The position numbers and the translations under genes are program-made. Below are positions 28,722 to 35,783 of a DNA stretch of 64,000 bases, one piece after another (positions within the stretch are counted from its first letter, which is position 1; each line of letters begins with the position of its first letter). Under the pieces are notes generated by a model. The model worked only from the letters and a program-made list of their open reading frames with translations, was not told where the DNA came from and made no database searches. The stretch lies in the NCBI RefSeq assembly GCF_054482525.1, contig NZ_CM137006.1. One strand, given 5' to 3'.

Positions 28722-30014
28722 TTACCTGTTTTCCCATAATCTCAGCATCGCTTTGTGCTCGTCTGTCAGCACAATCTGCGGGCGTCTGGCTCGAATATAG
28801 CTAATCGCTTCATTAACGGTTTTACAATGTCCGTAACATAACAGCCATGCCGCCACTACCAGCGCACTGCGCGATAATCCCAACGCGCAATGGACCAGAA
28901 CGCTGCCTTGCTCTTCGCGTAATGTTTCCAGCATTGCCACGGCCTGTCGGAGCTCCCCCTCTTCCGGAACCACCAGATCCAGCATCGGTACACAAAAATA
29001 GAGTTGATCTTTTGTGGCTCGTCCGCGAGGGAATTCAAAGGTGACGTCCAGAACCGCATTCTGTGCCGGAATATGTTGTGGAAACGCCCCTAAATAAACA
29101 CCAGCAGTAATTTTGCTCACCGGCTCAAGGCGAAGACAAAACCAACGCATAGACAGCCACATCCCGATGCGCCAGGGCAATGTCAGCCAGTAAACGGCGG
29201 GCGGGAGTTTCCCCTGACTATCTTTACCTGTTGTTATCGCGCCAAGCCCACCGTACCCACGGCCAATAATGAGTAGCGATAATACTGGCCAACATAACCA
29301 GACTGACCACCAGAACTGAAGCATTATCATTAGCTCCATCAACACAATGCACGAGCACGCGCCTGCGACATATGGCAGTGCTATTTTGATTCGACGTTGA
29401 TCAGGTTCCTGATAATTCCAACGACGGTCGACGGGCACCATCCAGTCAATTAACATACCTACCGCCAGCCCTGTGATGACATCAATAAAATGATGCTGCC
29501 AGGTCGTCAGCGTCGAAATGGCGATGAATAAAAACCATCCGCCGCAGACTTTACGCCACCTCACAGCCAGATGCTGACGAAAGTGACGCCAAAGTAGCCA
29601 GCAGAGAATAATATGCAGCGAAGGAGACTGGTTATAAGGCAGATCAAACAATTCAAGTTGCGAAAATAACCATCCTGTCACCCCACTCACTTCAGGACGG
29701 ATAAAACTAAACTTCAGCGGGTAGAGAAAAAAACCGCAGCAGGCCATTACCGTTGCCAGAATAAGCCGGTGGACAAGTCGGCGCTGTTCGAATGTCGAGC
29801 TACAAACGAACAGCGAAAATCCATATAAAAGATCCAGACTCCAGTAAGGAACAATAGTCCAGGGAAGAAAAGGGATCGCCGTTTCCCAACCGAATACCTG
29901 ACTGGGGATATCATGGTTGTTAAGATCCTGAGTCGCGGTGAACTGATTAAGAAACCCATAGGTGAAGAAGAAAAAGGGGGCCAGCAACAATAACCAGCCA
30001 GCTCCTTGTAGCAA
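28722..30014 (-). CDS. ynbD: Membrane protein with C-terminal dual-specificity phosphatase domain (HCxxGxxRS)
   Basis: Track ORF 463 aa overlaps the ynbC 3' end; the 430-aa form starts at a TTG at 30014, 13 nt below the ynbC stop. Phosphatase motif [10 protein letters not shown] near the C-terminus. Confidence 0.8.
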
Positions 30015-30027
30015 TACGTTCCGGCGT

Positions 30028-33302: not shown

Positions 33303-33470
33303 TATCAATCCTTGATAATTCTGTTTGCGCTATGGTGCATCAATTGCCCTGACAGAGATATCGCAACACGCCGCTTCATTAAAAATTCAGAATATATCAA
33401 GGTATTGGGGCTCACTGTCAGGAATGATTATCCCCAATTAATCAAATAGTTAAAAATATTACGCTGTTAT

Positions 33471-35783
33471 TCAATGCAACTCATCAAGTTTTCTCATCGC
33501 TTGTTCCCGTATTGCGCGCGTCTTAGCGTTAAGCGCCAGCTGGCGGACTAAATCCAGTTCAGGTTTAACAAGCTCTAACGCCAGCAAAGGATCACGTTTC
33601 AGCCTCGCCTTCAATACATCAACTGGGAAACGGGGATTATTCATCGCCATAATCCACCACTCGGGATCAATTTCTGCCGCCAGTGCCGCAGACGGTGTAT
33701 GGCGATTGTTAAGTGCGCCGAACTTGAAAAATGTAAGATTGCTTTTCGCCAGCGTACTCCACCATATACGATCCGGTTGTTTTGCCAGTTTATCCAGTTG
33801 CGCTAACGCATCGGGGTCAAGTGCATAATAAACACGTAACGCTTCGTTAACCTGCGCACGAGAGCTGTTTTCCTGCCTCAGAAAAAACTTCGCCCAAATA
33901 TCATTGCGTGGCATATTTTGCTGTAATTCCTTGAGGACAACAGCGGGTAAATTATCCCAACTAACTAATGCACTCTCTAAAAAGTCCCAGCCTTCCGAAC
34001 GTATCAGAGAGGTGGCATTTAATAGCATCTGGTCATCAACTTCACCGTGGCTAATCAGCTCAGACAAAATCATATCAGCGCTGGTTTCATATGCATCTGA
34101 ATCTGCTTTGGGATTATTTTTTCGATGCGATAAAGCGCGATGCCAAATTTTTTGTTTCATCGCCGTACTCAGATACTGATTTTTCGCCAGATTACTCCAC
34201 CCCGCAGGATCGTTGAAACGTGTCAATAATCGTTGTAAAGCAGCGTCAGAGTGAATTACCTGCATATCCCGACAGCAAAAATAGGCAGGTAATTTTTTCT
34301 CCATCTTTTTAACAAAATTAAACTGTAAGTTATCTGGCAATGCTAAAAATAACACACGTATTAGATCATCGTCATTCTCGAATTTTTGGTGTAAATATAC
34401 TGCTATTTTGTCACTCTCTTGTGGCGTCATCCGCAACAATTGACCATGGTGTTTCATCTCTGCCAGCTTTGACGCTAAGCTTGTGACAACATCGTTTGAT
34501 GAATCGTTCGCCAACTGCATTGCCTGATTGTAGGTGAGTTGTCCTCCAGCACCGACCTGACGAATAGAGAAATCATCACTGCGGATATAGCCATCAATAA
34601 TGGATTCGGGCAATAACCACGCATCTTTATAAAGCTCCTGAATGATCATATCCCAATCTCTTTTCGCCAGAGTCATGACGATATCCAGAGGGAGATTTTC
34701 ACGTAGCGCAAGATTCAACGGACCGACACCATCAGGTAGATGACTCATTCGCGTCATTATTTCGACAGAGAGCGGTTCACGGTCGAGCAACCCCAGAACA
34801 ACAGGCTGGTAACCCAATTGCTGATCGGTCAACTCCAGAATCTCATTGTCAGGCATATATCTCGCCATACTTTCAATCGTTTGTTCATCATTGCTATTAA
34901 TAAGTTGTTTGCGTAGGTTAGCTGAAATTCCTTTAAGCCTTGGGAGAGTTCGCATTATGGCAAGATCAAATGTCGCAATGTCTCGCCCTTCAAATGCAGC
35001 AACTTTGCCTTCATCCAGCATTTGCAATTCCTGCACTAACTCAGGAGAAGGCTTAGGGCGAAACAGCGCTTCTTTTTTCATCAGATTACAGACATTCCCT
35101 GCCATGCGAATATTGCTTCGCTTAAAAATTTCTTTCAGAGCATCTTTATCATTTATTAGGCCCCAATAATATGCATCAGGATTTATTATCGTCAGCGCTT
35201 TTTTGACATTTTCAGTGTCATTTTTGTCTCCCGCACGGACCATGAATTCACTATTTGTCGAAGACACAACAACAGGTGCAATTATGTCATTGATAAATAT
35301 CCCGCGCGCATTAATACTTCCCTTAATCGTAGACGGATTATCGTAATATGAGTCGATAAATACCAGTCCACTTGCATTTATCGAACCGGTAATTAACAGT
35401 GGTGAATCCGTAACTATATTCGTTGCCGTCACATCACCGAGAATAACCCATGGATTAGAAAGAGAGAAAGTGGAAATATTACCTTTGACTGTCAAATTGC
35501 CAAGAACAATCAATTTTTGATTACTCTCTATATTACCTTCTACCACTAAATCGCCACGATGCACTTTCCAGTCCGATGCAGATAAACCGAAGGGGACAAG
35601 ATTCACACTACTGTTGATAGCTTGTTCAACTTGTTGTTTATCTTCAGCGGTAGCCGCAGAAAAAAATGGTTCAATATCAAATACATTTGCAACACATCGA
35701 AGTTCCGCCTGTACTGGAAGACTCAGCATAAACAGGGGAAGTAAACCTATCCAGCTGCAAATCCTGGGCTTAAACATATGCAC
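33471..35783 (-). CDS. ydbD: Large secreted protein of unknown function
   Basis: 770-aa ORF with N-terminal signal peptide (MFKPRICSWIGLLPLFMLSLPVQA); true start may be the ATG two codons in. Confidence 0.8.
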   Translation of the reverse strand: MHMFKPRICSWIGLLPLFMLSLPVQAELRCVANVFDIEPFFSAATAEDKQQVEQAINSSVNLVPFGLSASDWKVHRGDLVVEGNIESNQKLIVLGNLTVKGNISTFSLSNPWVILGDVTATNIVTDSPLLITGSINASGLVFIDSYYDNPSTIKGSINARGIFINDIIAPVVVSSTNSEFMVRAGDKNDTENVKKALTIINPDAYYWGLINDKDALKEIFKRSNIRMAGNVCNLMKKEALFRPKPSPELVQELQMLDEGKVAAFEGRDIATFDLAIMRTLPRLKGISANLRKQLINSNDEQTIESMARYMPDNEILELTDQQLGYQPVVLGLLDREPLSVEIMTRMSHLPDGVGPLNLALRENLPLDIVMTLAKRDWDMIIQELYKDAWLLPESIIDGYIRSDDFSIRQVGAGGQLTYNQAMQLANDSSNDVVTSLASKLAEMKHHGQLLRMTPQESDKIAVYLHQKFENDDDLIRVLFLALPDNLQFNFVKKMEKKLPAYFCCRDMQVIHSDAALQRLLTRFNDPAGWSNLAKNQYLSTAMKQKIWHRALSHRKNNPKADSDAYETSADMILSELISHGEVDDQMLLNATSLIRSEGWDFLESALVSWDNLPAVVLKELQQNMPRNDIWAKFFLRQENSSRAQVNEALRVYYALDPDALAQLDKLAKQPDRIWWSTLAKSNLTFFKFGALNNRHTPSAALAAEIDPEWWIMAMNNPRFPVDVLKARLKRDPLLALELVKPELDLVRQLALNAKTRAIREQAMRKLDELH

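Follow-up and report, generated by a model that had tools for sequence, protein, structure and literature searches.

The ynbABCD operon of Escherichia coli as a trimmed form of a mobile gene cluster, possibly encoding a CDP-diacylglycerol branch of phospholipid synthesis

We analysed the ynbABCD operon and its neighbour ydbD in a 64,000-nucleotide stretch of the Escherichia coli chromosome (hereafter the window, whose positions serve as gene coordinates throughout), where an initial annotation had flagged positions 28722-35783 as an uncharacterised, lipid-modification-like set of five genes. Judged by gene content and order, ynbABCD is the E. coli version, trimmed, of a widespread and horizontally mobile six-gene cluster, and the two genes that E. 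coli appears to have lost encode a PlsC-type acyltransferase and a small two-helix membrane protein. We propose, with a probability that we put at roughly one in two, that ynbABCD, without ydbD, forms a self-contained CDP-diacylglycerol (CDP-DAG) branch of phospholipid synthesis that originated as a mobile cluster. The phospholipid synthesis of E. coli is regarded as essentially complete, yet about four-fifths of its complete genomes carry this set of lipid enzymes without a known product. What our analysis adds is a defined six-gene module, a YnbA subclass with an invariant altered metal-binding motif, and a two-faced YnbD with a putative periplasmic PAP2 domain and a putative cytoplasmic Cys-phosphatase domain.

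The flagged span is 100% identical to strain PCN033, whose RefSeq gene names we use, and to two other genomes. It contains five co-oriented open reading frames (ORFs) on the minus strand, named ydbD and ynbA to ynbD in PCN033, as had been described, and Pfam, run together with NCBIfam, confirmed each of the domain calls made earlier. The genes were rightly said to be catalogued already, since all of them are named in RefSeq and YnbB has a published activity.

A six-gene cluster of wide distribution

A scan for YnbC in one genome per species yielded 80 loci, distributed over Enterobacterales, Orbaceae, Neisseriales, Pseudomonas, Pasteurellaceae, Burkholderiales, Rhodocyclales, Campylobacter, Hymenobacter, Chryseobacterium, Planctomycetes and Verrucomicrobia. 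In nearly all of them, homologues of YnbA, YnbB and YnbD adjoin YnbC and share its strand; the complete foursome of ynbA, ynbB, ynbC and ynbD is found as co-oriented neighbours in 61 of these 80 loci, and most of the exceptions are cut contigs. Two further genes recur with them. The first, present in about 58 of the 80 loci, encodes a PlsC-type acyltransferase (PF01553) with the H-x4-D and FPEGTR motifs; the second follows ynbD in about 45 and encodes a membrane protein of 120-166 amino acids (aa) with two hydrophobic helices. No Pfam family matched this small protein, which is weakly conserved in Betaproteobacteria, Gammaproteobacteria and Hymenobacter (examples at L088 12167-12619, L054 13358-13858 and L032 13041-13400). 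Both are missing from the chromosomal operon of E. coli. Enterobacterial relatives have the gene order A-B-AT-C-D, with AT for the acyltransferase, whereas Pseudomonas and Pasteurellaceae have A-C-D-small-AT-B; the Chryseobacterium cluster includes a patatin-like lipase. Clustering of the ORFs within 7 kb on either side of the 80 loci revealed no further recurrent family beyond these six.

Plasmids carry the cluster as well, 31 in number; among them are conjugative IncF plasmids of E. coli and a 19-kb Burkholderia plasmid on which the complete set of six is annotated. Moreover, the IncFIA/IncFIC conjugative plasmid pFHI_NMBU_11_02 of E. coli and related contigs (L085, L086, L089) carry a second, Citrobacter-like copy with the order A-B-AT-C, in which the acyltransferase is present, YnbC is about 75% identical and ynbD is cut to 73 aa.

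The reading of the set as one for a CDP-activated lipid thus holds for ynbABCD, supported by the tight packing of the genes (spacers of 38 nt between ynbA and ynbB, 15 nt between ynbB and ynbC, and 13 nt between ynbC and ynbD), by their domains, by their association in the 61 loci and by the existence of a natural YnbA-YnbC fusion protein; it does not extend to ydbD, discussed below. The earlier picture had left out the larger cluster, the non-canonical motif of YnbA and the PAP2-type domain of YnbD. Catalytic residues are invariant across the orthologues of the YnbA, YnbB, YnbC and YnbD families, and because orthologues in different phyla retain them, the ORFs are genuine genes and did not arise by chance. 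Compared with K-12, the ratio of nonsynonymous to synonymous changes (pN/pS) of the ynb genes is 0.14-0.25, which indicates purifying selection.

A proposed CDP-DAG pathway

In the pathway that we propose, phosphatidate would be supplied by the acyltransferase where the cluster is complete. YnbB would convert phosphatidic acid and CTP into CDP-DAG, a reaction that others have observed in vitro, and YnbA would then move the phosphatidyl group onto an alcohol, probably a phosphorylated one, giving a phosphatidyl-X-phosphate. From this intermediate the cytoplasmic Cys-phosphatase domain of YnbD would strip the phosphate; PTPMT1 and PgpA-type enzymes carry out the same dephosphorylation when phosphatidylglycerol and phosphatidylinositol are made. 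YnbC, working on the cytoplasmic side of the membrane, would, to judge by its folds, deacylate and methylate the lipid or a part released from it, and after flipping of the lipid the periplasm-facing PAP2 domain of YnbD would either hydrolyse a phosphate ester or transfer a phospho-head group. Experimental support is confined to the YnbB step; the other steps we infer from family ties, invariant residues, folds and co-conservation. The proposal is also favoured by one distant variant, in which a YnbC-like gene lies between a CdsA-like gene and a gene for a PEMT-family lipid methyltransferase.

YnbB and the glycolipid MPIase

The annotated ynbB gene lies at 31801-32658, the K-12-equivalent start being at 32697. 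YnbB matches the Pfam family CTP_transf_1 (PF01148) with 225.8 bits. Against the CdsA equivalog of NCBIfam (PRK11624) it reaches 108 bits for a cut-off of 385, and we therefore consider it a CdsA paralogue, as described earlier for this homologue of a CDP-DAG synthase (PMC6362211). The alignment covers the C-terminal half only, where the CdsA signature K-R...K-D...H-G-G-x-x-D-R-x-D is near-invariant in 61 YnbB orthologues and intact in K-12. In the E. coli CDP-DAG pathway (CdsA, PgsA, PgpA/B/C), YnbB thus shares with CdsA this catalytic half and its signature, and differs from it by an unrelated N-terminal half and by its failure to support bulk phospholipid synthesis (PMC6362211, PMC7018664). 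YnbB is reported to form CDP-DAG in vitro (PMC6362211; Sato et al. 2019 via PMC7018664). A CDP-DAG that is produced slowly or released poorly, and hence provides no bulk supply, would fit a direct hand-over to YnbA.

The operon might alternatively serve the synthesis of the glycolipid MPIase. YnbB would then make CDP-DAG and turn it, with N-acetylglucosamine (GlcNAc)-1-phosphate, into GlcNAc-pyrophosphoryl-diacylglycerol (GlcNAc-PP-DAG), and some of the later or regulatory enzymes would be found in YnbA, YnbC and YnbD; the pyrophosphate link, for instance, could be a target of the PAP2 domain, and the O-acetyl groups one of the esterase. PAP2 enzymes often act on lipid pyrophosphates, which suits this idea. 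GlcNAc-PP-DAG is the MPIase precursor, and YnbB is the published second enzyme, besides CdsA, for the first step of its synthesis. Indeed, YnbB overproduction increases MPIase about as much as CdsA overproduction does, and under CdsA depletion YnbB restores MPIase and not phospholipids (PMC6362211, PMC7018664). When Tam41p is present, deletion of ynbB aggravates export defects; moreover, ynbB is reported to be cold-induced (PMC11413397, bioRxiv 10.64898/2026.06.05.730299), and the later MPIase enzymes have not yet been identified (PMC11413397), so that the neighbouring ynb genes could be candidates for the missing steps.

However, a single ynbB deletion has no effect and leaves MPIase unchanged (PMC6362211). 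Pfam and NCBIfam detect no glycosyltransferase, polymerase or flippase encoded in the operon, and about 15% of E. coli genomes are without the operon although MPIase is reportedly essential. The cluster is spread far beyond Enterobacterales, to which the enterobacterial common antigen has been described as confined (PMC8609368): it occurs in Bacteroidota, Campylobacter, Pseudomonas, other taxa and on plasmids. The literature that we found does not link YnbA, YnbC or YnbD to MPIase, and any additional source of CDP-DAG could raise MPIase indirectly. The absence of glycosyltransferases, the distribution beyond Enterobacterales and the E. coli genomes without the operon make an MPIase function weak as an explanation of the whole operon, and we consider it unlikely; for YnbB taken alone it is possible. 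The operon context suggests that the natural partner of YnbB is YnbA, in which case the effect on MPIase may be a side effect of extra CDP-DAG.

The product of the gene set had been called undefined in the initial annotation, which took a published biochemical assignment of that product as one finding that would speak against it. The statement stands for YnbA and YnbD, for which the literature searched gave no function (for ynbC it gave an indirect disruption phenotype only), and falls for YnbB, whose CDP-DAG synthesis and MPIase link are published (PMC6362211, PMC7018664); through these reports, half of such an assignment already exists.

YnbA, a distinct subfamily of CDP-alcohol phosphatidyltransferases

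The ynbA gene (32697-33302) encodes a small membrane protein of the CDP-alcohol phosphatidyltransferase family (CDP-OH_P_transf, PF01066; 38.5 bits for a cut-off of 22). The canonical motif of this family contains four Asp residues, D1-x2-D2-G-x2-A-R...G-x3-D3-x3-D4. YnbA departs from it with N69-x2-D72-G-x2-A-R77...G86-x2-L-N90-E91-x2-D94: D2, the Gly residues, A-R and D4 are present, and the alignment to the phosphatidylinositol-phosphate (PIP) synthase of Mycobacterium tuberculosis (6h53) shows that Asn replaces Asp1 and Asp3. The Asn-Asn variant occurs in 69 of 69 orthologues, and this invariance points to a distinct subfamily rather than to decay.

As for the acceptor, the best models for all 38 YnbA orthologues scanned were those of archaetidylinositol-phosphate (AIP) synthase and PIP synthase, always below the cut-offs. 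YnbA itself scores 73.5 bits for a cut-off of 180 against the PIP synthase equivalog (NF045883) and 47 for 170 against that of AIP synthase (NF040950), and it is nearer to these enzymes than to PgsA, whose model gives 29 bits. A profile search of the PDB likewise returned PIP synthases first, together with the AF2299 and CPT1 structures, and R140 and R151 of YnbA align with Arg residues of PIP synthase. The acceptor of PIP and AIP synthases is a phosphorylated alcohol, and a phosphatase must afterwards act on what they make. Since its nearest relatives accept inositol phosphate, the acceptor of YnbA is probably a phosphorylated alcohol. The order of steps would thus be that of phosphatidylglycerol synthesis, namely a synthase, transfer to an alcohol phosphate, then a phosphatase.

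YnbD, a membrane protein with two phosphatase-type domains

In the product of ynbD (28722-30014), a membrane domain with eight helices, belonging to the PAP2 superfamily (residues ~1-262), is fused to a dual-specificity phosphatase (DSP) domain at the C-terminus (~299-430), in a model with a mean predicted local distance difference test (pLDDT) of 95. The DSP domain matches DSPc (PF00782) with 97.6 bits and possesses, besides this profile match, the fold, the C-x5-R loop and the general-acid Asp. In comparisons of this domain PTPMT1, the mitochondrial phosphatidylglycerophosphate (PGP) phosphatase with a dual-specificity phosphatase fold, ranks high, and no higher than MAP-kinase phosphatases, so that a lipid phosphatase and a protein phosphatase are not separated in this way. 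The membrane domain of the E. coli protein matches PAP2_3 weakly, with 19.4 bits for a cut-off of 27; of 39 orthologues, PAP2_3 is matched by 33 (best E 2.7e-10), and PAP2 likewise by 33. The PAP2 motifs C2 (P-S-G-H) and C3 (S-R-x5-H-x3-D) are invariant among the orthologues, and the six-helix core fold is present. From the model and its loop charges, the DSP domain would be cytoplasmic and the PAP2 motifs would face the periplasm, as in canonical PAP2 enzymes. The PAP2 domain resembles sphingomyelin synthase (SMS) and AUR1, and may be a transferase of their type or a phosphatase. The paper on the 'Lipocone superfamily' does not treat the ynb cluster.

We also considered a more specific scheme, which we think improbable. 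On the cytoplasmic side of the membrane, YnbB, YnbA and YnbC, together with the DSP domain of YnbD, would build a dedicated donor lipid, which would then be flipped; the periplasm-facing SMS/AUR1-like domain of YnbD would move its phospho-head group, possibly methylated, to an envelope molecule, freeing diacylglycerol, and the Asn-Asn motif of YnbA would define a new catalytic subclass. If true, this would be a bacterial counterpart of the chemistry of sphingomyelin and inositol phosphorylceramide (IPC) synthases, and an envelope modification, not recognised before, that plasmids could transfer.

YnbC, a lipase-methyltransferase fusion

The ynbC gene (30028-31785) encodes a soluble fusion of an alpha/beta hydrolase (residues 1-~285; Hydrolase_4, PF12146, 231 bits) and a class I S-adenosylmethionine (SAM) methyltransferase (~285-585; Methyltransf_20, PF12147, 503 bits). 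Near-invariant in 77 orthologues are the triad S115/D230/H260, the SAM motif D413-x-A-x-G-x-G and T519-x-Q-P-W-H-P-Q. In Foldseek comparisons of the AlphaFold2 model (pLDDT 95.2), which for the whole chain are dominated by the lipase domain, the N-terminal domain is close to the monoacylglycerol lipases (MGLs) Rv0183 and human MGL, with target-normalised template-modelling scores (TM-target) of 0.86-0.90 (0.89-0.90 for Rv0183). It shares with these lipases the fold, 22-25% identity, the Ser-Asp-His triad and an H-G-type oxyanion motif, and differs from them by its fusion to a Methyltransf_20 domain. For the latter, single-sequence and profile searches gave only weak generic class I matches in the PDB (E 6e-4), and neither papers on PF12147 nor a characterised member were found in the literature and PDB searches. 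In one strain background, a transposon mutant of ynbC was reported to accumulate polyphosphate, which is probably due to stress (PMC2435150).

The relatives of YnbC offer another explanation, in which the key output is a small methyl ester. YnbC, as a lipase or thioesterase, would free an acyl chain whose carboxylate the methyltransferase domain would esterify, and the phospholipid enzymes would do no more than build and recycle the acyl donor. Distant hydrolase-Methyltransf_20 fusions on metagenome contigs (L090, L091, L094, L096), with 31-35% identity to YnbC, end gene sets for an acyl carrier protein, a ketosynthase, a MaoC dehydratase, a ketoreductase and a PF10118 protein, or an aryl-polyene-like type II synthase cluster; the Foldseek matches of the hydrolase include the polyketide thioesterases DcsB and GrgF, and the linked acyltransferase could re-acylate a lyso-lipid. 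Nevertheless, these homologues are distant and their substrate may have diverged. The methyl ester would also leave unexplained the strict co-conservation of a head-group transferase and two phosphatase-type domains, and a role of YnbC like that of BioC/BioH or PhcB would be an analogy, which we set aside. We hold this explanation to be distinctly unlikely.

Comparison with known pathways and weight of the proposal

The closest characterised analogue of the ynb cluster is the Bacteroides inositol-lipid cluster, which comprises an AUR1-like IPC synthase (BT_1522), a PIP synthase (BT_1523), a phosphatase (BT_1525) and an inositol-phosphate synthase (MIPS; BT_1526) (PMC9246714). Compared with this PIP route of Bacteroides, Actinobacteria and Archaea, the ynb cluster is without a linked MIPS gene; its transferase carries N-x2-DG...N-E-x2-D in place of D-x2-DG...D-x3-D and scores under the family cut-offs; its phosphatase is a Cys-based DSP fused to PAP2 and not of the PgpA type; and it adds a CdsA paralogue of its own, an acyltransferase and a lipase-methyltransferase. 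Unlike the housekeeping CDP-DAG genes, the ynb genes are accessory and plasmid-borne, and their expression depends on BglJ-RcsB.

Several points weigh against a CDP-DAG branch. Its product is so far hypothetical, as are acceptor X, the group that YnbC would methylate and the substrate of the hydrolase. No head-group precursor gene, for inositol-phosphate synthase or similar, recurs within 7 kb on each side of the 80 loci. YnbA lies far below the PIP and AIP synthase cut-offs with two of the four catalytic Asp residues replaced, and its chemistry may differ from that of the characterised members. The sole experimental function published for the operon points to MPIase and not to a new phospholipid. 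The fatty-acid and polyketide synthase genes beside distant YnbC-like genes suggest that acyl esters, rather than a head group, may be what YnbC acts on. The topology of YnbD comes from a model and from the positive-inside rule applied to loop charges. Finally, the pathway may be incomplete in E. coli, which is without two of the six genes.

Signs of decay in E. coli and in the window strain

This last point leads to a further alternative, namely that what E. coli retains in ynbABCD is cryptic and decaying, the remnant of a cluster acquired horizontally, with no specific product under natural conditions. Besides the two missing genes, its expression is poor and depends for its strength on BglJ, which is itself silenced by H-NS (PMC3950696). 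The GC content is 41-44% across ydbD, ynbA and ynbB (window 31500-36000) versus about 50% in ynbC, ynbD and the flanks, a composition that would fit a foreign origin and H-NS binding. No match to the region is found in 804 of 5426 complete E. coli genomes; in about 230, a deletion of about 1.6 kb joins ynbA' to 'ynbC, and others have IS1 or IS903B insertions. Outside E. coli, Escherichia whittamii (L005) has ydbD-ynbABC without ynbD, and Cardiobacterium hominis (L058) has a stop inside ynbC and is missing ynbB and ynbD. The pN/pS of the neighbouring pdxI gene, 0.04, is also well below that of the ynb genes.

The strain of the window adds its own damage. Codon 12 of ynbB is amber, TTG in K-12 having become TAG (window 32662-32664, minus strand); RefSeq starts the gene at a non-canonical ATT at 32658, giving a 285-aa product, and G273D falls within the near-invariant H-G-G of the CdsA signature. 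The amber codon and G273D probably impair the pathway in this lineage. At an identity of at least 99%, the allele occurs in three complete genomes only. Against a remnant, 79% of complete E. coli genomes retain at least 80% of ynbABCD. The pN/pS of the ynb genes is well under 1, and K-12 retains every catalytic residue; YnbB has activity in vitro, and deleting ynbB produces phenotypes when the background is sensitised (PMC6362211, PMC7018664). Moreover, the housekeeping PlsC could stand in for the missing acyltransferase. A remnant with no specific product is in our opinion doubtful as a description of the species.

ydbD, a neighbour of the operon

The ydbD gene (33471-35777) adjoins ynbA and lies outside the module. 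The initial annotation had counted it, as a large secreted protein, among the parts of one system, and we now place the chance that all five genes, exported YdbD included, act together as very small. The shared orientation and adjacency are in its favour, as are the low GC content common to ydbD, ynbA and ynbB and the 168-nt spacer (33303-33470, 96% identical to K-12), in which no terminator-like hairpin was seen, leaving room for read-through from ydbD. Yet a YdbD homologue stands beside the cluster in 1 of the 80 loci, that of E. whittamii, another Escherichia. Within the 5426 complete E. coli genomes, ydbD is present in 3833 and ynbABCD, with at least 80% retained, in 4283. The two were lost independently: at least 450 genomes keep ynbABCD with ydbD cleanly missing, homology stopping within the spacer at window ~33401, and in B2-type strains such as APEC O1:K1:H7 pdxI directly adjoins an intact ynbABCD. 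Conversely, the genomes in which a deletion joins ynbA' to 'ynbC keep ydbD.

In addition, ynbA has its own promoter in the spacer, documented by a lacZ fusion and by a start site mapped by 5' rapid amplification of cDNA ends (5'-RACE), and mutagenesis showed that it is activated through a BglJ-RcsB site whose centre lies 65-68 bp upstream of the start (PMC3950696). Our consensus scan of the spacer found no sigma-70-like site and no terminator, and the evidence for the ynbA promoter is therefore that of the literature alone. As co-conservation, presence and absence within the species, and the separate ynbA promoter all disagree with membership, we conclude that ydbD does not belong to the system, and the five-gene reading is already largely refuted.

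The protein itself has no lipid-related domain in Pfam or NCBIfam. DUF2773, at the C-terminus (142 bits), is the sole Pfam domain above threshold. RefSeq names the protein a bactofilin; we did not retain this name, since the Pfam Bactofilin score is 15.6 bits for a cut-off of 27.9, the bactofilin-like beta-helix stretch being weak and sub-threshold. A PDB search found no relatives. The N-terminus, MFKPRICSWIGLLPLFMLSLPVQA followed by ELR, contains a pair of basic residues, a hydrophobic core of 14 residues and a cleavage-type motif, V-Q-A, and no second hydrophobic segment follows, so that secretion or export of YdbD is plausible from this signal-peptide-like start.

Gene layout and flanking sequences

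The end of the flagged span, 35783, corresponds to an alternative GTG start of ydbD. In K-12 ynbA and ynbB overlap, unlike in the window strain with its 38-nt gap. One E. coli protein entry of 889 aa (P0001) is a read-through YnbB-YnbC fusion. The region is flanked upstream by pdxI, on the same strand, and on the other side by the convergent azoR. Between pdxI and ydbD, at window 35804-35833, a hairpin with a 12-bp stem and T-runs on both strands resembles a bidirectional intrinsic terminator, which would part pdxI from ydbD. Further away, the annotation of PCN033 places an IS200/IS605-family tnpA between hrpA and ydcF, corresponding to window ~23298-23756 (L001 577-1035), and that of APEC O1:K1:H7 (L003) shows none between these two genes.

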